64,000 bases of DNA from a phage. The notes beneath the pieces are model-generated. The model was not told the origin of the DNA, ran no database searches, and saw nothing but the letters and a program-made list of their open reading frames with translations. The translations under genes and the position numbers were made by a program. This document shows positions 6,792-54,279 of the stretch, piece after piece. The stretch lies in sequence record PZ019085.1; one strand, 5' to 3'. The first letter of the stretch is position 1. Each line of letters starts with the position of its first letter.

Positions 6792-8596
6792 TATGCAATC
6801 CTTACCCAACGGTATACAGTTATAGATGGCTGAATATTAGTTATAGAACGCGCTGGAACATGAGATCCATTAGTCTTTGCATGGTCTTCACGATATTTAG
6901 TGTAAATAGGTCCTTCTTCATCTGGGTCATATTGACAACCGCCTATAATTACTGTACCATTATCATCAGAAATAAGAACCTTTTCATCGGTTTGTGTAGC
7001 TGGTAAATCAGCATTTTCTAATGTGATGGTTGTTACACCAACGGTCCCACCTGCGGTATGAGTAGGGTTACCATTGATGTCAAGGTCATTATTATTTAAT
7101 GCAAAATTAGGATCTGACGCGTCATCATTCCAACCTGCTAATACTTTGCCTTGACCCCAAATTTTCCACGAACCAAAACCTAAATAAGTTGCCGGATTAT
7201 TAGGGTTAACCGCATTTTCGTAAATAGTCCCGACAGGATAAATTGTGTCAAATATTGCTGAGATAGTCGAGAATTCACGTTCATATGTAGGAACAGGTTC
7301 TACATTAGGCCAGCCAATTTTATCAAAATCGGTTAATGCAACATCGCCAGTAATTTCAATGTTAGACCCTTGAGAAACATATTTCTCGTCAGTGGCATCA
7401 AGGATTTCTTCCATTTCAAGAAGAGTTCCTAAATCGTTATTAAACCATGTGATGGTAATAATGTCTTGGTCTTCAAATTGACGGTCAAACAGAATTGCGC
7501 TAGGGATATTATCGGTATACTCAATCGCATAATCTGTATACGATTGAGTCCATGTCCCGCCGAGATTAGCGCATGACTCTTCAGAATCAGCATCTACACC
7601 TTCACAACGGAAAATAGGAGTTCCAACAGTACCAGCTAATTCTTGGAGAATACCGTTGAAGCGAACTTCTAATGAATTAGGGTTAGGTGGTTCTGTAGGA
7701 TTAATACCAAATGCTGTAAATGGAATAGACCGGAACGTACTCAAATCAGTGACGTAAATACTTCCATCAATAGACTTTTTAGCAGTCAATTTACTATCTA
7801 AAATGCGAACTTGGCGACGAGTATATGAACTACGCCACTGAGAAACACCATCTAGGAACGTCTCAATTTGTACGGTGTCGCCAACATTACATGGTTGGCG
7901 TAATCTAATATTAAATCCATCAAGTGCAACCAGTTCACCAGGATTAGCGCCTGGAGAACCAAAATCACTATTATCACTGAATACATCACCATAATACAAT
8001 TCGTTGCCACGATGTTTTACGCGAATGTTGTTAACGTTATAAGAGGTCCCGTTAAAAACATCCATGAAATCGGTCTGACCTTGGGTTTCAACCAGATATT
8101 CTCTACGAGCAACATTACTAATGTCAGAGCTAACTATTTTATCAATTTGTTTGTTCTTGATGTATTCCCAACGTCCAGGAGCACAATAAACTAATTCTAA
8201 ATCAGAGAACTGAACGTTAATTTCTACTGGAGATGAAGAACCTTTAATCGTGTCCCCGTTTGCCGGAATTAAAGTAACAGGGTTAATGTTCCAAGTTGCA
8301 AATACGTCACGAGCACGAATAACTTTATTATAGTCTGCAATCGTCCCTTTAGGAAGATTTACTGAAACTCGTCCAGAAGTAGTATTAATTGCATAAGATT
8401 TACCCCAAGCGGCCTTAAGATTAAGACCATCAGCCGCATCATAAGTCTTCCATGCGCCAGCGGCATAAGGAACTTCACCATCACCTAATTCATAATAGAG
8501 TTCGTCAAAGTTCTCGTTTATTTTTTCACCACCTCGACGAAGGTAATCGCCTTGTCCGTCATCAACGACGTTACCAATTTTAATATTTTGTTTCAT
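6791..8596 (-). CDS. 10: baseplate wedge / short tail fibre attachment protein (T4 gp10-like)
   Basis: 601-aa ORF; size and synteny of T4 gp10. Confidence 0.85.
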
Positions 8597-9468
8597 TATT
8601 GAGCGACCCCAATTTTCTGAGTTGAGATAATTTTAACTGCTGAACGTAATCCAATAATATCGGATGTAATCGTCATAGTAGCAAAGTTGTTAATAATACT
8701 AAAGCTAATATTAGCAATCTCGTCGGTTTCATCTACATTACCAACTCGCATTACTGCAAATTCGGTAGAAAGAACTTCTGAGTTAATTGTATCTATTAGA
8801 ATATTTATTTCACATGTTTTTATTTTTCTACCGTCAGCGGATTGGCATGTAACAAGCAATTTAGCCATGTTATAATCTGTGCGATAAAAGAGAGGAATAG
8901 AAACTGTGTTTCCTGTAAGACTCCAAGTCCCATCGACAGGAGATTCTTTCTGCCCAAACATGCTATCAGTAGAATAATTCCATACCGAAGTTGGCCCATT
9001 AATTTCAACACAACGAAGAACAACATGGGTATAAGGGGTGGAAATAACAAGATTATTAAGAACACCTTTAATCGAACCATCAGTTACTTGGATACTTAAA
9101 GGATTGTTAACAGAAATAGACCCATTAGAGTTTATGAATTCTACAGAGTCACCTAATTCAGGACGGTCAATAATAACAATCACACCGCCATCAGAAGCAT
9201 CAATATCATGCATCGTGCCGGGTTTAATAGGAGTTTGATAATCGACCGCCTTTCCTTTTTGATAATAGCCTGTGGCATGAATAGTTTGACCTGTGGGCCC
9301 GGTTCCATCTGCTACAGCCATTTTACGTTGATCGCCAAATGCATTGTAAATAGCGTTGATATCGTCATTTATTTTATTACCACCGTCGAATAAGATATCA
9401 CCTGTTGAGGCATTACCAATTTCGCCGGTATCGATTAATTGTTTAGGAGTTTGCTTAAAAAATGCCAT
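8596..9468 (-). CDS. 9: baseplate wedge / long tail fibre connector (T4 gp9-like)
   Basis: 290-aa ORF MAFFKQTPKQLIDTGEIGNAS...; synteny; start ATG at 9466-9468. Confidence 0.85.
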   Translation of the reverse strand: MAFFKQTPKQLIDTGEIGNASTGDILFDGGNKINDDINAIYNAFGDQRKMAVADGTGPTGQTIHATGYYQKGKAVDYQTPIKPGTMHDIDASDGGVIVIIDRPELGDSVEFINSNGSISVNNPLSIQVTDGSIKGVLNNLVISTPYTHVVLRCVEINGPTSVWNYSTDSMFGQKESPVDGTWSLTGNTVSIPLFYRTDYNMAKLLVTCQSADGRKIKTCEINILIDTINSEVLSTEFAVMRVGNVDETDEIANISFSIINNFATMTITSDIIGLRSAVKIISTQKIGVAQ

Positions 9469-9500
9469 AATTCTGCCTTTTGTTGTCCTATATTATATTC

Positions 9501-9508
9501 TATTTATA
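9501..9508 (-). promoter_or_regulatory. T4-type late promoter (TATAAATA) for gene 9
   Basis: minus-strand TATAAATA about 33 nt upstream of the gene 9 ATG; T4 late promoters are defined by this octamer. Confidence 0.6.
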
Positions 9509-9511
9509 GAT

Positions 9512-9537
9512 ACAAAAATGGGAGCCCGAAGGCTCCC
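9512..9537 (-). terminator. rho-independent terminator downstream of gene 8
   Basis: minus-strand GGGAGCC-UUCG-GGCUCCC hairpin followed by AUUUUUGU, immediately after the gene 8 stop. Confidence 0.6.
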
Positions 9538-9540
9538 TAA

Positions 9541-10545
9541 TTAAAACATAAACAAAATGTTAATTTCTTCTGTTTGGTCCATTGCCATAATAACAGGTGG
9601 TCGGTTTTCCATATAAATCATTTCACCAGAATGACGCTGCAGGTCTCTAGGGTCGTAATAATCCTTTTCTGCTTTAACATTAGGGTCATTTGGATTTTTC
9701 TTAGCTTCTAACGGGTTTGCGATAATTGATATCTGTCTAAAACCCTTGTTACCAGGCAAAGCTGCCTCAGGGAAATAAACAGAATCAAAATATGCTTTAA
9801 ACCGCATCGTATTGGCTTTAACACGGTAAATCAAGCCGTAGTCATCTTGTTGCCAAGTTAAGTTATTTTCATATCCCCAACGGGTGGGGTCTTCTTTAAT
9901 TTCTTCCGGCCATGGAACTACAAGATATTCATTAGTGCAACGGTTAATTGACACATCGGCAGGAATCTCATAAAGATATTCCCAAATATATCCATCACCG
10001 GTTTCGATAACCCCATTAGCATCGCCTCTGCCTTCAGGAGGAGACATAGAACGAACAGACGGAGTCCATTTACCACCTAATTTAAGACATTCATCTTTAT
10101 TATCTAAAGATTCTATTGAACAGAGCCCTACGTCAGGGACATCTAAACAACGGTAAATTAACCAACCAGCTCCAACTTCTGTCGCGTTGTAAGGAGCAGT
10201 ATTACATGCGACTATATCGTTAATTCTAAACGTGTAAGGGTCTGGATATCGCACATCTCCCCAATCACGTCTAGGAATAACAGAATCTAACATTGAAGGT
10301 AAAACTTTAACGGTGCCCATCATATGGGTCCACATATCAGTAACACCAAGAACAGAATCTGTAGGATAAGGTGGGGCGAAGCCCACCTCATTTTCATTTG
10401 ACGCCCAAGGCTCTGAACGTCCAAACGTAATATAAATGGAGTTCTTATCATCTCCATCCCCAACTGAATTATAAAAATTCAGCATTTTCTCTGTTCTAAA
10501 TTTTGATGTAACTATTGCACGATAGATAACACTTGAATCATTCAT
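9541..10545 (-). CDS. 8: baseplate wedge protein (T4 gp8-like)
   Basis: 334-aa ORF, same length as T4 gp8; synteny. Confidence 0.85.
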   Translation of the reverse strand: MNDSSVIYRAIVTSKFRTEKMLNFYNSVGDGDDKNSIYITFGRSEPWASNENEVGFAPPYPTDSVLGVTDMWTHMMGTVKVLPSMLDSVIPRRDWGDVRYPDPYTFRINDIVACNTAPYNATEVGAGWLIYRCLDVPDVGLCSIESLDNKDECLKLGGKWTPSVRSMSPPEGRGDANGVIETGDGYIWEYLYEIPADVSINRCTNEYLVVPWPEEIKEDPTRWGYENNLTWQQDDYGLIYRVKANTMRFKAYFDSVYFPEAALPGNKGFRQISIIANPLEAKKNPNDPNVKAEKDYYDPRDLQRHSGEMIYMENRPPVIMAMDQTEEINILFMF

Positions 10546-34165: not shown

Positions 34166-34426
34166 ATGAAAATGTATCAAGAATTTATCGCTGAAGCAGA
34201 TGACAAAGGTCCTAAATTTAAAGTTAAAGCTTTCATTGGTGATGCGGAAGACTTTGGCTCATTAAAACGTAATGGGTATTTTTTCTTAGGTGGCGATGGT
34301 AAAGAAATCAACACCTATGCAAAACGTAGTGAAATTGCTTATGTTGTAGCAAGCCCTAAAGTAGATGTTGACGATATTGGATACGATTTTAACAACTTCG
34401 GAATTATTTCTGGCGGTAAAGCTTAA
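34166..34426 (+). CDS. internal protein-like (capsid targeting sequence protein)
   Basis: 86 aa MKMYQEFIAEADDKG...; CTS motif. Confidence 0.65.
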   Translation: MKMYQEFIAEADDKGPKFKVKAFIGDAEDFGSLKRNGYFFLGGDGKEINTYAKRSEIAYVVASPKVDVDDIGYDFNNFGIISGGKA

Positions 34427-34429
34427 ACG

Positions 34430-34459
34430 GTTTACGCTTAAGTATTAATATAGTATAAT
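34430..34459 (+). promoter_or_regulatory. sigma70-like early promoter
   Basis: GTTTAC, 18-bp spacer, TATAAT. Confidence 0.55.
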
Positions 34460-34489
34460 TACTCTATCAAAACAAACAAGGAAACAAAA

Positions 34490-34804
34490 ATGAAAACGTA
34501 TAAAGAATTTATTGCAGAATCCGCCAACCAACGCGTTGAAGGTGGTTATATTTGGATTGAACAAGTTGAGCCGCCGAGCCGCACTTCTACAGGTAAATGG
34601 AAAATTACTGTTGATGGTCCTGGCGGTAAACGTAGGACTCTTAAAGAAATTAACGGGTACTATGAAGAAGCTCTTTCGGATGCAGGAACTTACATGATGC
34701 AAATCATGATTAAAAACCCTGAAAACCGTTTTGCAGCTAAAGTCTTCCGCCGTATTGGTAATAAACTTTATGATGCATACTCTAAAAACTTCCCTAAAGA
34801 ATAA
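34490..34804 (+). CDS. internal protein-like (capsid targeting sequence protein)
   Basis: 104 aa MKTYKEFIAESANQRVEGG...; CTS motif. Confidence 0.65.
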   Translation: MKTYKEFIAESANQRVEGGYIWIEQVEPPSRTSTGKWKITVDGPGGKRRTLKEINGYYEEALSDAGTYMMQIMIKNPENRFAAKVFRRIGNKLYDAYSKNFPKE

Positions 34805-34829
34805 CATAAATTAAAACAATAGGAACAAA

Positions 34830-35159
34830 ATGAAAACATATCAAGAGTTTATCACTGAAGTTACATTATCTGCGGAACAGAAAGCTGCTATCGAAGAAGG
34901 TAAAAATCCCAAAGTAACATATAAAGTAAATAGTAAAGGCGTTTTTGATGACTTGGTTCAAGACCCTGAATTGAAAAAGGCTCTTTCTAAAACTAATGCG
35001 TACTTTGCTCCTAAATTTAACACAGCCGGTGTACTTATTGGATTGGATGTATTCAACTCTAAAGGTGTTCTATCTAATGCCTTTGGTTATGCCGCTAACA
35101 AAATTACCAAAGCCGCATGGGAATCCAATACTAAACAAGCTCAAAAGCCTAGAGTATAA
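34830..35159 (+). CDS. internal protein-like (capsid targeting sequence protein)
   Basis: 109 aa MKTYQEFITEVTLSAEQ...; CTS motif. Confidence 0.65.
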   Translation: MKTYQEFITEVTLSAEQKAAIEEGKNPKVTYKVNSKGVFDDLVQDPELKKALSKTNAYFAPKFNTAGVLIGLDVFNSKGVLSNAFGYAANKITKAAWESNTKQAQKPRV

Positions 35160-35331
35160 TTCTTGCCTAATAAAGGGAAACGCAACCTCTCCTTATGAAC
35201 GTCGAGTCCTCTGAGTGATGTACCTTTTCCAACCTGTAATAAGGTCGAGCGCAATGCGGTAATGGGTTTACATAGCGAGTCGAAGGACATAACATGTGCC
35301 ACGGAATGGCCCAAACCTTAAGAGAAATAAT

Positions 35332-35871
35332 ATGAGAACATTTTTAACTGGTCCTTATCTATCCCTGATGAATGCTTTTACACACCATTCTGATGCTAGA
35401 GTAGAAGAAATTTGTAAGAACGGTTATGCCCCACCATTTGAAGACGTACTCAAGCAGTACTGTACACTTCGTTTAGACGGCGGCAGACAATCAGGTAAAT
35501 CGACCGCAGTAACTAATTTTGCTGTTAATTGGCTGTATGACGGTGGAACAGTTATTGTTCTTTCTAATACTTCAGCTTATTCTAAAATTTCTGCTGGCAA
35601 TATTAAAAAAGAATTTTCTCGTTATTCTAGCGATGATATTCGATTCCGTTTATTTACTGATTCTGTCCGTAGTTTTATTGGCAATGAAGCTTCTAAATTC
35701 CGTGGATTAACGCTTTCTCGTATTCTGTATATAATTGACGAGCCTATTAAAGCTCCTGATATGGATAAGATTTACAACATACATATTAAAACAGTCCAAC
35801 ACTGTTGCAAAAGCAAATATTGCATCGGCGGTATTGCTCGTCCTCAATTTTTTGTGATTGGAATGCAATGA
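35332..35871 (+). CDS. P-loop NTPase, hypothetical
   Basis: 179 aa from ATG 35332; Walker A GGRQSGKST and Walker B-like ILYIIDEP. Confidence 0.6.
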   Translation: MRTFLTGPYLSLMNAFTHHSDARVEEICKNGYAPPFEDVLKQYCTLRLDGGRQSGKSTAVTNFAVNWLYDGGTVIVLSNTSAYSKISAGNIKKEFSRYSSDDIRFRLFTDSVRSFIGNEASKFRGLTLSRILYIIDEPIKAPDMDKIYNIHIKTVQHCCKSKYCIGGIARPQFFVIGMQ

Positions 35872-36176
35872 TGACCACTATTGAAGTTTTTGAATATTGT
35901 TATAATAGCCAAGTATGCAATAAAAGGGCCCTTGTAGAAAATTACGAGATTTACCATTTTAAACCTAAACGATATCGTTTGACTAAAGGTCCGTTCGCAG
36001 GGCAGCAGGTTCTTTGTACTGCTCCTAATGCACGGTTGATGACTAGTATTCCGCATTTCAAAATGGAATTTATTGATGGACCATTTAAGGGATTAATCAC
36101 TCAAAGTTTAATGGCGTTTAATTCCGACCCATTTTTGATTAAAGAAAAAACTTGGATAAATTTATTTTCTAATTGA
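35868..36176 (+). CDS. hypothetical protein
   Basis: 102 aa from ATG 35868 (ATGA overlap with upstream stop). Confidence 0.55.
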   Translation: MMTTIEVFEYCYNSQVCNKRALVENYEIYHFKPKRYRLTKGPFAGQQVLCTAPNARLMTSIPHFKMEFIDGPFKGLITQSLMAFNSDPFLIKEKTWINLFSN

Positions 36177-36182
36177 GGTTAT

Positions 36183-36545
36183 ATGAAAGCATATCAAATT
36201 CTTGAAGGTGCACATAAAGGCACTATTTATTTTGAAGACGGTACTCAAGCTCGGATTATCGTCTCTAAGACTTTTAAAGAAGACGCTATTGTAGACCCGG
36301 AAATTTTCTACGGTTTGAATGCCCGTGAAATTGAAATTGAACATCAACCTAAAGTTAAAATTGAAGGTGGTCAACATCTGAACGTTAACGTTCTGCGTCG
36401 CGAAACTCTGGAAGATGCAGTTAAGCATCCTGAAAAATATCCGCAGCTGACCATCCGCGTATCCGGTTATGCAGTTCGCTTTAACTCTCTGACTCCGGAA
36501 CAGCAGCGCGACGTTATCGCTCGTACCTTTACTGAGAGTCTATAA
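36183..36545 (+). CDS. autonomous glycyl radical cofactor (GrcA/YfiD-like; T4 Y06I equivalent)
   Basis: 120 aa; C-terminal 65 aa [59 protein letters not shown] carry the RVSGYAVRF glycyl-radical motif and match E. coli GrcA as recalled. Confidence 0.85.
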
Positions 36546-36769
36546 TGGCTAAATTGATTATAGAAGGGTCTGATGATGTTTTAAAATGTTTTGCCGCCTG
36601 GTTTAGTTGCTCAGGCGAGCAATCATTCGTTGAAGCATTTAGAACGGGTGATATTACTGGAAAATATCCGTCAACCGATATCACTGTACGCGGATATGGT
36701 ATTAATGAGCCTATCCAATTGGTCGAATATGACCTTGCCACCGATGAGGAAATTCCTTATGTCGATTGA
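36545..36769 (+). CDS. hypothetical protein
   Basis: 74-aa ORF. Confidence 0.55.
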   Translation: MAKLIIEGSDDVLKCFAAWFSCSGEQSFVEAFRTGDITGKYPSTDITVRGYGINEPIQLVEYDLATDEEIPYVD

Positions 36770-37025
36770 AGACATCAAAGGCTACAAGCCGCATACCGAT
36801 GATAAAATCAGTAAAGTGAACGCTATTAAAGATGCAGAAGTCCGTCTTGGATTGATGTTTGATGCTCTGATTGAAGAAGCATATATCTTGAAAGAAAACG
36901 AAACAGAGCAACAAACCAAAGAAGATATGGATGCAGTGCAGGCTCTTAAGTATGCTAAGCAACACCTAAAAGAAGCCAGCATGTGGGCATGTCGTGCAGT
37001 ATTTCGACCTGAGGAAAAATACTAA
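36759..37025 (+). CDS. hypothetical helical protein (T4 vs.4 / Acb2 position)
   Basis: 88 aa from ATG 36759; second ORF upstream of regB, the relative position of T4 vs.4 (Acb2); assignment positional only. Confidence 0.5.
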   Translation: MSIEDIKGYKPHTDDKISKVNAIKDAEVRLGLMFDALIEEAYILKENETEQQTKEDMDAVQALKYAKQHLKEASMWACRAVFRPEEKY

Positions 37026-37240
37026 TGGCCTCTACTATTACCGGGTTATTGGACTTTCAAGAAAAGGTCAACAAAATTTGTAGTGAATACTTAAAGTATC
37101 TTGAAGAAGACCTTGAAGATTGTAAGGAAGAAGGCGAAGAAGACTATGCTGACCAGCGTCGTCGCCAAATCGAAGAGATGAGGCATTTCGCCAATATGGT
37201 ATCTAAAGAATCTTGGGCTTTAACTCCATTTTATCAATAA
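37025..37240 (+). CDS. hypothetical acidic protein
   Basis: 71-aa ORF. Confidence 0.55.
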   Translation: MASTITGLLDFQEKVNKICSEYLKYLEEDLEDCKEEGEEDYADQRRRQIEEMRHFANMVSKESWALTPFYQ

Positions 37241-37244
37241 AGTA

Positions 37245-37285
37245 GTTTACTTCTCCTCTAGATGTGTTACTATAGACCTGTCAAC
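37245..37285 (+). promoter_or_regulatory. early promoter cassette (PeSL-like)
   Basis: GTTTAC...GTGTTACTATAGACCTGTCAAC upstream of regB. Confidence 0.5.
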
Positions 37286-37301
37286 TAGAGGAGAAATCAA
37301 A

Positions 37302-37760
37302 ATGACTATCAATTCAGACGTTTTTATCCGCCGTAATAAACTCCGTCGAATCTTTGAAACGGAGTTCCGCAAAATAAATGCCGGTATAAAAGATGCTGCA
37401 AAGTCTCTTGGACTACCAGGCTTTCATATCAAGTATTCTCAACATCTCTTAGATCGTGCCATCCAGAGAGAAATAGATGAGAACTACGTTTTTGAATTAT
37501 TTCGTAAAGTAAAAAATCATGTTAAAGAAGTTGCAGAATTTTTATCAATGCCGGCACGTCCAGATGTTGATGAAGATTTTGTCGAAGGCGTCGAATATCG
37601 CCCAGGCCGTTTAGAAATAACTGATGGAAATCTTTGGTTAGGACTTACAGTCTGTCGCGAAAATCCAGCATTCAAAATGAAGACTCTTCAATGCAGAATG
37701 GCTATTATTAACAGTAAACGACTACCAGGAAAAGCTTCTAAAGCAGTGATTAAAATCTAG
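37302..37760 (+). CDS. regB: RegB site-specific endoribonuclease
   Basis: 152 aa MTINSDVFIRRNKLRRIFETEFRKIN...; near-collinear with T4 RegB as recalled. Confidence 0.95.
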   Translation: MTINSDVFIRRNKLRRIFETEFRKINAGIKDAAKSLGLPGFHIKYSQHLLDRAIQREIDENYVFELFRKVKNHVKEVAEFLSMPARPDVDEDFVEGVEYRPGRLEITDGNLWLGLTVCRENPAFKMKTLQCRMAIINSKRLPGKASKAVIKI

Positions 37761-37768
37761 AGGTAAAC

Positions 37769-38311
37769 ATGAGAAAAGCACTACTCGCTGGTCTATTTGC
37801 TCTTTCGTTATCAGCACATAGCTCCGAGCATACTTTTAGTAATGTCCAACTCGATAACTTGAATTATGCTTATCAGTTTGGGGAACAGTTTTCTAAGGAT
37901 GGAAAATTTAAAACGCATGAAAATATGCATAAGAAAGGACTTGGATACATAATGGCCGCAATACTATGGCAGGAATCATCTGCCGGTATTAATCTTAAAG
38001 ATAAGAAAGGTCACCATGCGTATGGAATGTTCCAAAATTATCTACCAACAATGAGGGCAAGAATTAACCAGCTTGGTTATAATATGACTGACGCCCAAAT
38101 TAAGAAAATGCTATCTAAGCGGTCTAATTCAGCCAGATGGGCTTATATCGAATTTTCTTATTGGTTAAATATACATAATGGGGATATAAGAAAAGCTATA
38201 TCCTCATATAACGCGGGATGGAAGACAAGTGCTGGAAGTAAATATGCTTCTGAAGTCCTAGAAAAGGCCAATTACCTTAAATCAAATAAACTACTGGAAA
38301 TAAAAGAATGA
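37769..38311 (+). CDS. secreted lytic transglycosylase-like protein (SLT domain)
   Basis: 180 aa; signal peptide MRKALLAGLFALSLSAHS; SLT-like motifs WQESS, AYGMFQ, YNAG; position of T4 vs.1. Confidence 0.65.
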   Translation: MRKALLAGLFALSLSAHSSEHTFSNVQLDNLNYAYQFGEQFSKDGKFKTHENMHKKGLGYIMAAILWQESSAGINLKDKKGHHAYGMFQNYLPTMRARINQLGYNMTDAQIKKMLSKRSNSARWAYIEFSYWLNIHNGDIRKAISSYNAGWKTSAGSKYASEVLEKANYLKSNKLLEIKE

Positions 38312-51524: not shown

Positions 51525-51998
51525 ATGTTATTATCAGGCGCAAAATATAAAGAAGAAAAACAAAAATTTTATGACGCACAGAACGGTAAGTGTCCTATTT
51601 GCCACCGCGAATTAGACCCTGATGTTCAAGGTAACCATCTTGACCACGACCATGAATTAAACGGGCCAAAAGCCGGTAGAGTTCGTGGATTACTCTGTAA
51701 TCTGTGCAACGCAGCAGAAGGTCAAATGAAGCATAAGTTCAACCGTTCTGGTCTTAAAGGCCGTGATGTCAACTACCTAGAATGGCTTGAATCTCTTCTT
51801 GATTATTTGAAACAAGATTATTCTGATAATAATATCCATCCTAATTTTGTTCCAGACAAAACTAAAGAGTTCTCAAGACTAGGTAAAGATGAAATGATGG
51901 CTGAGATGCTTCAAAGAGGATTTGAATATAATGAATCTGACACTAAAACACAGTTAATAGCTTCATTCAAAAAGCAGCTTAGAAAGAGTTTAAAATGA
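51525..51998 (+). CDS. 49: endonuclease VII (Holliday junction resolvase)
   Basis: 157 aa MLLSGAKYKEEKQKFYDAQNGKCPICHRELDP...; near-collinear with T4 endo VII as recalled. Confidence 0.95.
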   Translation: MLLSGAKYKEEKQKFYDAQNGKCPICHRELDPDVQGNHLDHDHELNGPKAGRVRGLLCNLCNAAEGQMKHKFNRSGLKGRDVNYLEWLESLLDYLKQDYSDNNIHPNFVPDKTKEFSRLGKDEMMAEMLQRGFEYNESDTKTQLIASFKKQLRKSLK

Positions 51999-53812
51999 AA
52001 ATTGAAAAAGAAATTGAAGGATTAATTCATAAAACTAATAAAGATCTTTTGAACGAGAATGCTAATAAAGATTCTCGTGTTTTTCCAACTCAACGGGACC
52101 TTATGGCTGGTATTGTGTCTAAACACATTGCCAAAAATATGGTCCCGTCTTTTATTATGAAAGCGCATGAAAGCGGAATTATCCATTTCCACGATATTGA
52201 TTATTCCCCTGCTCTTCCATTTACTAATTGCTGTTTAGTAGATTTAAAAGGGATGCTTGAGAATGGATTTAAGCTTGGTAATGCGCAGATTGAAACTCCT
52301 AAATCAATCGGTGTTGCTACTGCAATTATGGCACAAATTACTGCACAGGTTGCTTCTCATCAATATGGTGGAACGACTTTTGCGAATGTAGATAAAGTAC
52401 TTTCTCCTTATGTTAAACGCACCTATGCAAAACATATCGAGGATGCAGAAAAATGGCAAATCGCCGATGCACCGAATTATGCTCAATCTAAAACAGAAAA
52501 AGACGTATACGATGCATTCCAAGCTTATGAATATGAAGTAAATACTCTCTTTAGTTCAAACGGGCAAACGCCTTTTGTAACAATTACATTTGGCACGGGA
52601 ACTGACTGGACTGAACGAATGATTCAGAAAGCAATTCTGAAAAATCGTATTAAAGGTCTTGGTCGTGATGGAATAACTCCTATTTTCCCTAAGCTTGTTA
52701 TGTTCGTCGAAGAAGGTGTTAATCTTTACAAAGACGATCCGAACTATGATATTAAGCAGCTTGCTCTAGAGTGCGCAAGCAAAAGGATGTATCCTGACAT
52801 TATTTCGGTTAAGAATAATAAAGCTATTACTGGTTCTTCAATTCCAGTTTCTCCAATGGGTTGCCGTAGTTTCTTGGGCGTATGGAAAGATTCGACTGGT
52901 AATGAAATTCTTGATGGACGTAATAATCTTGGTGTTGTAACGCTGAATCTTCCTCGAATTGCGTTAGATTCTTATATTGGAACACAATTTAACGAACAGA
53001 AATTTATTGAATTATTCAATGAACGTATGGATTTGTGTTTTGAAGCTTTGATGTGTAGAATTAGTTCTTTAAAAGGAGTTAAAGCAACTGTTGCTCCTAT
53101 TCTTTACCAAGAAGGTGCATTCGGGGTTCGTCTTAAACCGGATGATGATATAATTGAGTTATTTAAAAACGGTAGAAGTTCAGTGTCTTTGGGATACATT
53201 GGTATTCACGAATTGAATATTCTTGTCGGTCGTGATATTGGACAAGAAATTTTAACTAAAATGAATGCTCGTCTTAAGCAGTGGACCGAAAGAACCGGTT
53301 TTGCTTTTAGCTTGTATTCTACTCCTGCTGAAAACCTTTGCTATCGCTTCTGTAAACTTGATACTGAAAAATATGGAAGTGTAAAAGATGTTACTGATAA
53401 AGGATGGTACACTAATAGTTTCCATGTTTCAGTAGAAGAAAATATTACTCCGTTTGAAAAGATTTCTCGCGAAGCGCCATATCATTTCATTGCGACAGGC
53501 GGTCACATTTCTTATGTTGAACTTCCTGATATGAAAAATAACCTAAAAGGTCTTGAGGCTGTCTGGGATTATGCTGCACAACATTTAGATTATTTTGGTG
53601 TTAATATGCCAGTAGATAAATGTTTTACGTGTGGAAGTACCCATGAAATGACTCCGACTGAAAACGGATTTGTTTGTTCAGTTTGTGGAGAAACTGATCC
53701 TAAAAAGATGAACACAATAAGAAGAACATGCGGCTATTTGGGAAATCCGAACGAACGCGGATTTAATCTCGGTAAAAATAAAGAAATAATGCATAGGGTT
53801 AAACACCAATGA
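51995..53812 (+). CDS. nrdD: anaerobic ribonucleoside-triphosphate reductase
   Basis: 605 aa; C-terminal glycyl-radical motif RRTCGYLG and Cys cluster CFTCGS...CSVCG; uninterrupted ORF. Confidence 0.95.
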   Translation: MKIEKEIEGLIHKTNKDLLNENANKDSRVFPTQRDLMAGIVSKHIAKNMVPSFIMKAHESGIIHFHDIDYSPALPFTNCCLVDLKGMLENGFKLGNAQIETPKSIGVATAIMAQITAQVASHQYGGTTFANVDKVLSPYVKRTYAKHIEDAEKWQIADAPNYAQSKTEKDVYDAFQAYEYEVNTLFSSNGQTPFVTITFGTGTDWTERMIQKAILKNRIKGLGRDGITPIFPKLVMFVEEGVNLYKDDPNYDIKQLALECASKRMYPDIISVKNNKAITGSSIPVSPMGCRSFLGVWKDSTGNEILDGRNNLGVVTLNLPRIALDSYIGTQFNEQKFIELFNERMDLCFEALMCRISSLKGVKATVAPILYQEGAFGVRLKPDDDIIELFKNGRSSVSLGYIGIHELNILVGRDIGQEILTKMNARLKQWTERTGFAFSLYSTPAENLCYRFCKLDTEKYGSVKDVTDKGWYTNSFHVSVEENITPFEKISREAPYHFIATGGHISYVELPDMKNNLKGLEAVWDYAAQHLDYFGVNMPVDKCFTCGSTHEMTPTENGFVCSVCGETDPKKMNTIRRTCGYLGNPNERGFNLGKNKEIMHRVKHQ

Positions 53813-54279
53813 ATTATGATAGATTTTATCCTTGCGATTTTGTGAATGGCCCTGGTTGCAGGGTCGTTCTTTTCGTTACAGGTTGTTTGCATAAATGCGA
53901 AGGGTGTTATAATAAATCAACATGGAATGCTAGAAATGGTATTCCATTCACTAGTGAAACACTAGAACAATTAATTGAATGTTTGAATAATGATTATATA
54001 GAAGGATTAACTATAACTGGAGGAGACCCTCTTTATCCTGATAACAGAGACGTTATTCACTCTGTGATTCAAACTATTAAAAATCTTTATCCCAATAAAA
54101 GCATTTGGTTGTGGACAGGATATAAGTTTGAAGATATTAAACAACTAGAAATGCTTAAATATGTTGATGTTATTATTGATGGTAAGTATGAGAAAAATCT
54201 TCCGACCAAAAAGTTGTGGCGAGGATCAGATAATCAGCGACTTTGGTCAAATACCGATGGGGTGTGGAAACATGATTAA
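53809..54279 (+). CDS. nrdG: anaerobic RNR activating enzyme (radical SAM)
   Basis: 156 aa; CxxxCxxC-type cluster GCLHKCEGCYN. Confidence 0.9.
   Translation: MNYDRFYPCDFVNGPGCRVVLFVTGCLHKCEGCYNKSTWNARNGIPFTSETLEQLIECLNNDYIEGLTITGGDPLYPDNRDVIHSVIQTIKNLYPNKSIWLWTGYKFEDIKQLEMLKYVDVIIDGKYEKNLPTKKLWRGSDNQRLWSNTDGVWKHD

Follow-up and report, generated by a model that had tools for sequence, protein, structure and literature searches.

In a stretch of 64,000 nucleotides (nt) of phage DNA (sequence record PZ019085.1; hereafter the window), an open reading frame (ORF) at 36183-36545 encodes a small glycyl-radical protein. It is the Mosigvirus orthologue of T4 vs.6, the gene of protein Y06I, and its product resembles GrcA (YfiD) of Escherichia coli. 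We find that this gene is a mosaic. The 5' part belongs to an old AT-rich phage lineage whereas the 3' part, encoding the glycyl-radical domain, is nearly identical in nucleotide sequence to E. coli grcA. Hundreds of T-even genomes have this patch from E. coli, and a Klebsiella version of it is found at the same place in phages of Klebsiella. Homology-limited gene conversion from the chromosomal grcA gene of the host, at least twice, is very probably the best explanation of these observations.

Two halves of different origin

The ORF was aligned codon by codon with grcA of E. coli BL21. In the second half of the protein (residues 61-120, the tail), all 60 residues are identical to those of E. 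coli GrcA and 173 of the 180 nt of the corresponding codons are the same. Residues 1-60 (the head), on the contrary, are about 25-30% identical and four indels are needed to align them. A maximum chi-square scan locates the breakpoint after gene nt 178, at window position 36360, and none of 2000 permutations gave a value as high. Identity to E. coli grcA is 47.8% (85/178) 5' of the break and 96.2% (175/182) 3' of it. The transition is therefore sharply localised, as expected for intragenic gene conversion from host to phage. The choice of synonymous codons follows the same division. At residues common to the phage and host proteins, the codons agree at 8 of 17 positions in the head, compared with 53 of 60 in the tail (Fisher p = 0.0008).

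Base composition also differs between the two halves. The G+C content rises from 0.350 in the head to 0.494 in the tail, the whole window being at 0.376. At third codon positions, the values for head and tail are 0.233 and 0.417, the latter being within the top 3% of 402 sixty-codon segments of the window's long ORFs. CTG accounts for five of the six leucine codons of the tail, against 8% of leucine codons in these long ORFs. In a blastn search, gene nt 133-363 were found at 90% identity in every one of 5,426 E. coli genomes (5,426/5,426). A first-pass annotation, made by reading the sequence, had described the C-terminal ~65 residues as nearly the same as GrcA and had seen a GC-rich 3' half with E. 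coli-type codons from about 36365. The first statement was slightly generous (62 of the last 65 residues are identical) and the second is close to the computed break. Even host identity or even composition across the ORF, which the annotation had named as observations that would speak against a chimeric gene, was not found.

The head is a distant GrcA homologue. Residues 21-120 of the ORF product align to residues 27-127 of the E. coli GrcA structure (PDB 6OWR). An N-terminal motif of the head is common to Jiaodavirus, Slopekvirus, Karamvirus and Pseudotevenvirus. Comparison with T4 gives a dN/dS of 0.055/0.438, which indicates purifying selection, so that the head is probably functional too. 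The head thus represents an old AT-rich phage lineage present across Straboviridae, and the host-like segment is a patch in an existing gene, not one partner in a fusion of unrelated parts.

Extent and donor of the tract

The host-derived tract corresponds to nt 200-374 of E. coli grcA (Table 1). Its mismatches to BL21 are at window positions 36377, 36401, 36431 and 36458. The one at 36401 is the grcA T240C allele of E. coli strain 504239, which is apparently present in roughly a quarter of E. coli genomes. At the 5' edge, phages read GTT AAA ATT where E. coli reads GTT CGC GTT, and the junction lies within AAA AT/T GAA GGT (the slash marks the edge). From there, the phages are identical to E. 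coli up to the codon before the last three, which are of phage type. Both ends coincide with the limits within which an ancestral phage tail can be aligned with the host gene. This fits homology-dependent gene conversion and not illegitimate insertion. When the whole window was compared by megablast with 5,426 complete E. coli genomes, a single match per genome was obtained, at window 36361-36553; no other segment of the window matched these genomes.

The donor was searched for in a panel of 81 host grcA genes from Enterobacterales and Pasteurellaceae, by comparing the last 180 coding nt. In the tail of the window gene, 173 positions agree with E. coli, 171 with another Escherichia species, 160 with Citrobacter and 146 with Salmonella. 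With T4, the corresponding values are 178, 176, 165 and 149. The median score of the panel is about 150/180. In a neighbour-joining tree, the T-even tails nest within the Escherichia branch. The genes pflB and tdcE were also considered as donors and were rejected (74-80% identity).

Slow evolution does not account for the identity of the tails, because the synonymous divergence (dS) between E. coli and Salmonella grcA is 1.02 in this same segment. The value for the head is 0.80, and the tail is thus under no special synonymous constraint. The E. coli tail itself fits the enterobacterial series, with 2 differences from the other Escherichia species, 13-15 from Citrobacter and about 30 from Salmonella. 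As the E. coli allele fits this vertical series and the codon usage of the tract is host-like, the transfer was from host to phage. The recombination with host grcA suggested in the first-pass annotation is therefore supported, and the enterobacterial host that it deduced can be narrowed. The tract points to Escherichia, and the nearest phage records are Mosigviruses of E. coli.

Distribution and age of the tract

A search with E. coli grcA showed that nt 200-384 match 646 phage genomes at 90% identity or more: 4 at 99% or more, 635 at 95-99% and 7 at 90-95%. Among the matches listed, the alignments begin at grcA nt 199-202. The matched phages are of the T4 and RB69 types (Tequatrovirus and Mosigvirus) and infect Escherichia, Shigella, Yersinia and other hosts. 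In T4, the tract is identical to that of BL21 at 171 of 171 nt. With 4 mismatches in these 171 nt, the window allele is less host-like. About half of the sampled E. coli genomes are the same as T4 at every position except the phage-type last codons. The first-pass annotation had proposed a recent recombination and, as a check, a comparison with the T4 Y06I gene. The recombination stands. It is not private to this phage, since some 646 genomes share the tract, including T4 where it is cleaner.

Nucleotide identity between the window and T4 varies along the locus: 66.1% in vs.7, 88.9% in the head of vs.6, 96.1% in its tail and 68.9% in vs.5. The age of the tract was examined with 16 T-even alleles, namely those of the window, T4T and E. 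coli O157 typing phage 3, six from IMG/VR contigs and seven from metagenome contigs. The metagenomes had been scanned with the junction pattern, which gave 12 loci; 4 of these, where VKIEGG occurs by chance in the products of unrelated genes, were dropped. The heads split into a Mosigvirus-type clade, which contains the window allele, and a Tequatrovirus-type clade. Between the two clades, the head (180 nt) has 12 fixed differences and 21 polymorphic sites, whereas the tract (171 nt) has none fixed and 16 polymorphic (Fisher p = 0.0046). The between-clade distance is 0.11 in the head and 0.022 in the tract, the latter not exceeding the within-clade tract values (0.017-0.022).

Inside a clade, variability in the tract is 0.6-0.8 times that in the head, and the tract is thus not frozen. 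Four alleles drawn from both clades (T4T, L096, L098 and L188) are identical to E. coli at 171 of 171 nt, and the differences in the remaining ones are mostly private to single alleles. Fixed differences between the clades resume at gene nt 170 and 360, within about 10 nt of the tract. The tract therefore has a genealogy of its own, as host-to-phage conversion would produce. From the 12 fixed differences in the head against none in the tract, it follows that the E. coli sequence entered the gene, for the first time or again, after the clades split. The tract is younger than the separation of the Tequatrovirus and Mosigvirus alleles, whose 5' halves and flanks are much older.

A Klebsiella counterpart

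Klebsiella grcA sequences were obtained by a protein search followed by contig look-up. Heads of the Jiaodavirus genes are 73-76% identical to that of the window. Their tails match Klebsiella grcA at 109/110 nt in vB_KpnM_311F, 123/125 in L121 and 160/165 in KP1 and Nispero, compared with 144/165 for E. coli. The Jiaodavirus tracts begin at the same edge (AAA ATT/GAA). We considered the 20 sites at which both Klebsiella alleles differ from E. coli. Jiaodavirus has the Klebsiella state at 16 of them, T4 has the E. coli state at all 20 and the window at 19. About 140 genomes of Klebsiella phages show 90-97% identity to Klebsiella grcA, again from this 5' edge, whereas E. coli phages reach only 85-87%. 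Such Klebsiella-specific states are not explained by parallel substitution. Thus, at least two separate host-to-phage transfers have affected the same part of the gene.

Overwriting of the vs.6 tail by host DNA is not universal among phages. GrcA homologues with the same architecture and a near-identical glycyl-radical domain at the protein level are found in T5, where the gene product is called 'pyruvate formate-lyase related protein', in Krischvirus, Karamvirus, Slopekvirus and Pseudotevenvirus, and in jumbo phages. They differ from the window gene by the absence of a recent patch: tails of Slopekvirus, Karamvirus, Krischvirus, Pseudotevenvirus, T5-like and jumbo phages are only 70-85% identical in nucleotides to any sampled host grcA, the range for other phage genera taken together being 70-89%. 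Two Cronobacter phages are likewise not host-like, with 146/180 for Pseudotevenvirus leB (compared with C. sakazakii grcA) and 136/180 for Nanhuvirus LPCS28. Searches of the phage collection with Salmonella and Enterobacter grcA revealed no Salmonella-like or Enterobacter-like tail, the best matches being of E. coli type at 84-86%.

Two further observations concern other phages. Seven IMG/VR contigs of about 150 kb (L113-L118 and L124) encode GrcA homologues with more host-like N-termini (…SIWLIE.NKARCLVAKE…). Their tails are nearest to Haemophilus and other Pasteurellaceae grcA genes, with 141-150/180 nt across the group and 145-150 when only the four closest Haemophilus are considered. They show the NPDKYP variant, which is of Pasteurellaceae type. 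They may represent an older, separate acquisition in phages of Pasteurellaceae. In 'Pseudomonas phage vB_PSGBLB0006' (PV654520.1; given host P. aeruginosa), the gene is of T-even type and its tail is 86.9% identical to Klebsiella grcA, the level of E. coli-type tails. The host label of this record looks like a labelling error.

Origin of the tract

Gene conversion from the host would proceed as follows. During infection, the phage's own diverged glycyl-radical domain would recombine with host DNA by homologous or homeologous recombination. The resulting patch would stop where homology between phage and host stops. On the 5' side, this is the start of the conserved EGGQH domain. On the 3' side, the limit lies three codons before the stop codon; farther on, host and phage have unrelated sequences, the terminator in one and vs.5 in the other. 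Once in place, some 170 bp of perfect host identity would favour re-conversion and oppose drift towards phage codon usage. Because such identity should ease re-conversion, the patch would tend to stay host-like.

The most serious competitor, although we consider it unlikely, is a single conversion from E. coli in one T-even lineage followed by phage-phage spread between Tequatrovirus and Mosigvirus, with no repeated host input. T-even phages recombine readily, and all of the ~646 genomes have the same 5' edge. In addition, the similarity of the vs.6 heads of the window and T4, well above the 66-69% of the flanks, fits some exchange between the two genera. However, the homogenised segment is tightly bounded by the clade-fixed differences at nt 170 and 360, and its bounds are the limits of homology to host grcA, which exchange between phages need not respect. 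Moreover, the Klebsiella tract of Jiaodavirus is an independent host-to-phage conversion at the same site. Among tract variants, a single coincidence with an E. coli grcA allele was seen, T240C. In the E. coli phages, the data favour host input, because the homogenised zone corresponds to the limits of host homology and because of the Klebsiella case, yet they do not separate the two scenarios.

Alternatively, a whole host grcA gene might have been captured once, long ago, its N-terminal half having diverged fast while the C-terminal half was held by protein constraint. In line with this idea, the N-terminal half is still detectably homologous to GrcA, and the glycyl-radical domain is extremely conserved as a protein in all hosts and phages. 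Constraint on the protein does not keep synonymous sites unchanged, however, and T4 shows 0 differences in 171 nt where E. coli and Salmonella have diverged to a dS of 1.02. Other phage lineages with the same or nearly the same amino acids are only 70-85% identical in nucleotides. The contrast in codon sharing between head and tail is also at odds with a single capture, as is the fact that the head is common to phage genera whose tails are not E. coli-like. Already contradicted by the synonymous sites, this scenario is very improbable.

Selection at the nucleotide level, through host-optimal codons or an RNA element, could in principle keep the tract host-identical without recent transfer. In the host, grcA is a highly expressed gene with biased codons, and the tract has an excess of singletons relative to fixed differences, as weak purifying selection could produce. 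Yet non-optimal codons of the host (AAG, CAT, TAT, TTT) have also been copied codon for codon, and the diversity of the tract within clades is 0.6-0.8 times that of the head. In T5 and Phi1/RB49, which also infect E. coli, the protein domain is retained but is written in quite different codons, and Klebsiella phages have Klebsiella codons. No Rfam match was found in 35000-38000, and pattern scans for promoters and terminators gave background level only. We therefore regard such selection as equally hard to credit.

Host contamination or a chimeric assembly is a still more remote explanation. In one metagenome contig, L177, the sequence indeed passes from the phage gene, by way of the shared tract, to eamB and the following gene of E. 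coli. Nevertheless, about 646 independently sequenced genomes, T4 references included, have the tract in frame between phage-specific flanks; the phage copies have mutations of their own and retain last three codons of phage type; and in the window phage sequence continues on either side of the tract. The converse transfer, in which E. coli received the 3' end of grcA from a T-even phage, has nothing specific in its favour beyond an identity that by itself has no direction, and is just as remote, being already contradicted by the place of the E. coli tail in the enterobacterial series with a dS comparable to the rest of the gene, by the host-like G+C content and codon usage of the tract, atypical for phage, and by its presence in all 5,426 E. 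coli genomes.

Contig L177 (OCHD01000040.1, 170,927 bp) carries, at 7577-9670, upstream phage genes and a Mosigvirus-type vs.6 head, then, from E. coli, the terminator of grcA, eamB and a gene of LysR type, which we take to be yfiE. Its 3' part is 99.2% identical to E. coli over 785 nt aligned to the BL21 locus. One reading of the contig, a phage whose tract extends as far as the host terminator, was rejected because the sequence runs on into eamB and yfiE of E. coli. The assembler most likely crossed the ~171-nt repeat shared by phage and host, a real phage-host joint molecule being conceivable. L177 was left out of the statistics.

Several points weigh against host gene conversion as set out above, or against the role given to the gene. 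The four tract mismatches of the window are also found in other phage lineages or as E. coli polymorphism, which makes their origin ambiguous. The clade comparison uses a small sample of alleles, 16 sequences of which some are partial. Zero fixed differences together with numerous singletons would also be the classic result of weak purifying selection, and a single old event followed by constraint could strictly speaking leave the same pattern. If phage-phage recombination had carried one converted allele from Tequatrovirus to Mosigvirus or back, the outcome in the E. coli phages could look like repeated conversion by the host. T-even phages break down host DNA and their cytosines are modified, features usually held to restrict such exchange (PMC1524935, PMC2993671), and recombination of T-even DNA with the host chromosome is deduced here from sequence comparison rather than seen directly. 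The physiological role proposed below is carried over from the T4 orthologue to the window phage. Finally, the NCBIfam equivalog model TIGR04365 (spare_glycyl) gives 159.1 bits with the ORF product, under the curated cut-off of 170 bits, compared with 234 bits for E. coli GrcA.

On balance, we retain gene conversion from host grcA. A stronger version of it can be formulated, in which the glycyl-radical domain encoded by T-even grcA undergoes concerted evolution with host grcA. Host DNA fragments set free in the course of infection would repeatedly reset the tract to the allele of the current host genus, E. coli for Tequatrovirus and Mosigvirus and Klebsiella for Jiaodavirus. We put this forward as a tentative extension, which is somewhat less likely to be right than wrong.

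Glycyl-radical functions of the phage

T4 Y06I, like E. coli YfiD, is activated by the activase of pyruvate formate-lyase (PFL) and restores oxygen-cleaved PFL in vitro (Wagner et al. 2001, via PMC8683613). By analogy with this orthologue, the window protein may serve as a spare part for PFL; its C-terminal 60 residues are the same as those of Y06I and GrcA. The host activase PflA would install the radical on Gly95 of the phage protein. The C-terminal domain would then replace the oxygen-cleaved C-terminus of PFL, and production of acetyl-CoA and formate could be kept up at low oxygen during infection.

The window also encodes nrdD and nrdG (Table 1), as the first-pass annotation had noted. 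Since the only activase encoded by the phage is that of NrdD, the GrcA-like protein presumably depends on host PflA. E. coli has chromosomal homologues of nrdD and nrdG, and the phage genes (51995-54279) showed no megablast similarity to any of the E. coli genomes. Among the host-related anaerobic genes of this phage, only the tail of grcA has been overwritten by host DNA. The annotation had further proposed a set of glycyl-radical functions for anaerobic growth. For the GrcA-like member, a role under microaerobic conditions or during oxygen transitions is a better description than anaerobic growth in general, as GrcA repairs oxygen-damaged PFL (PMC8683613).

The gene and its locus

The ORF has an ATG start preceded by a GAGG ribosome-binding site, and its TAA stop shares one base with the ATG of the vs.5-like gene (TAATG). 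It is 98.6% identical in nucleotides to a gene that bears the annotation grcA in the Mosigvirus E. coli O157 typing phage 3, and 92.6% identical to vs.6 of T4T. Residues 60-101 match the Pfam Gly_radical domain (PF01228; E 2e-18, 67.3 bits for a cut-off of 22.2), as expected for a small stand-alone glycyl-radical protein. E. coli GrcA/YfiD (PDB 6OWR) is the best solved structure for the product (E 2e-42), followed by the C-terminus of PFL. Gly95, in the RVSGY motif, is the counterpart of G102 in E. coli GrcA and of G734 in PflB, and is the predicted radical glycine of the GrcA family; the role of the radical-bearing glycine in GrcA and PFL has been described (PMC8683613).

The match to phrog_1209 is full length (residues 1-120, E 9e-63). 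Together with the position between vs.7 and vs.5, it assigns the gene to the T4 vs.6 orthologue group. This family is listed in PHROGs as 'unknown function'. As for TIGR04365, the match spans only residues 18-120, and the shortfall in score is due to the divergent N-terminal half of the phage protein. GenBank and RefSeq records already name the gene GrcA (in RefSeq, T4 vs.6 is 'GrcA') despite this sub-cut-off score. From its sequence, the ORF product is predicted to work like GrcA without being a strict sequence equivalog.

Table 1. Features of the vs.6 locus and the other glycyl-radical genes of the window
Feature	Position	Strand	Remarks
Complete ORF, vs.6/Y06I orthologue, GrcA-type autonomous glycyl-radical cofactor	36183..36545	+	120 residues + stop
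Phage-lineage 5' part, residues 1-59/60, AT-rich	36183..36360	+	Distant to host GrcA residues 1-66; conserved among T-even-type phages
Host-derived gene-conversion tract (gene nt 179-353), glycyl-radical domain EGGQH...RTFTE	36361..36535	+	E. coli grcA nt 200-374; 171/175 nt identical to BL21
Gly95 codon, RVSGY motif (residues 92-96), predicted radical glycine	36465..36467	+	Codon table; alignment to 6OWR and to PFL 1CM5/1H16 residues 696-759
Last three codons + stop, phage-type, beyond tract	36534..36545	+	GAG AGT CTA TAA; also in Slopekvirus and Pseudotevenvirus tails; E. coli GAA AGC CTG
vs.7-like upstream neighbour, ordinary phage divergence	35868..36176	+	66.1% nt identity to T4; phrog_2049
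vs.5-like downstream neighbour, ordinary phage divergence	36545..36769	+	68.9% nt identity to T4; phrog_1986
nrdD, anaerobic ribonucleotide reductase, the other glycyl-radical protein of the phage	51995..53812	+	Pfam NRDD E 1.9e-171, Gly_radical E 1.6e-25
nrdG, radical-SAM activase of NrdD	53809..54279	+	Pfam Fer4_12 E 4.2e-49, Radical_SAM E 2.9e-8

The order of genes is of T4 type: denV, internal-protein genes, vs.8-like, vs.7-like, the vs.6 ORF, vs.5-like, vs.4-like, regB, vs.1, vs and tk.4. Synteny at the vs.6 locus is kept between the window, T4T and O157 typing phage 3. In Escherichia phage JS98, a Dhakavirus (L176, 2098-2605), vs.8 and vs.7 are directly followed by a vs.5-like ORF and vs.4, with no vs.6/grcA at the vs.7-vs.5 locus. 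The gene is therefore not universal in Tevenvirinae infecting E. coli. The T2 record AP018813.1 annotates the vs.6 locus as tail sheath and tail tube, which looks like an annotation error.

Upstream, the vs.8-like gene (35296-35871) contains a stretch of 60 nt (35348-35407) that is 100% identical to T4, within a gene otherwise around 72-90% identical. This stretch has no megablast match in E. coli genomes and is thus not another host patch. Three adjacent small ORFs of 86, 104 and 109 residues at 34166-35159 begin with MKMYQEFIAE, MKTYKEFIAE and MKTYQEFITE. They match phrog_2667 (internal head protein) and phrog_3966, and the set is unlike the ipII/ipIII arrangement of T4. Their N-termini are presumably of the capsid-targeting type of T4 internal head proteins.

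Relation to known systems and significance

T4 vs.6 is the closest well-known relative. It has the same position between vs.7 and vs.5 and the same length of 120 residues, and the two proteins share identical C-terminal 60 residues, their 7 amino-acid differences all lying in residues 1-60. The window allele differs from it by a Mosigvirus-type head (12 fixed differences in 180 nt) and by the four tract mismatches to BL21. E. coli GrcA has in common with the window protein the glycyl-radical domain, the RVSGY motif and the small stand-alone form, and the DNA of the C-terminal part is 96-100% identical between E. coli and the T-even phage copies. The mode of action is presumably the same, by analogy. 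The window protein departs from E. coli GrcA in its N-terminal 60 residues, is 7 residues shorter and is encoded in a virulent phage without the host promoter. In the host, the grcA promoter is under FNR/ArcA control.

A process of this kind is already known. In the psbA and psbD genes of cyanophages, which are T4-like virulent phages, intragenic recombination between host and phage has exchanged segments and left a patchy G+C content (Zeidner 2005; Sullivan 2006, PMC1484495). Like these genes, vs.6 of the window contains a segment of a host metabolic gene in a T4-like virulent phage, with patchy G+C content. Unlike them, it has a single, sharply bounded patch that covers one domain and is up to 100% identical to a present-day host species. 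Also in contrast with psbA and psbD, independent host-specific versions of the patch occur in phages of two host genera, and no phage-to-host direction is seen. In comparisons of T4-like genomes, all that is said of vs.6 is that it is a conserved ORF and contains a Gly_radical domain (PMC1524935, PMC2993671). In the literature searched, we found no account of the nucleotide mosaic of vs.6, of its Escherichia specificity or of the Klebsiella parallel, although an earlier mention in the main T4 genome review is possible. The gene and its biochemical role were thus already known; what is added is a sharply defined, recurrent and host-specific conversion tract in the T4 family.

The usual view of T4 and its relatives is that they exchange little DNA, if any, with the chromosome of the host. 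About 175 bp up to 100% identical to present-day E. coli grcA contrasts with this view. The shared tract can also yield phage-host chimeric contigs in metagenome assemblies, and L177 is one such case. The vs.6 tract offers a clean and tractable locus for measuring recombination from the host into a virulent phage in a model system, and it is a possible marker of the recent host genus for uncultured T4-like phages. If concerted evolution with host grcA were true, the T4 system would provide a natural, measurable example of ongoing recombination from the chromosome into a virulent phage, together with a built-in marker of host history.

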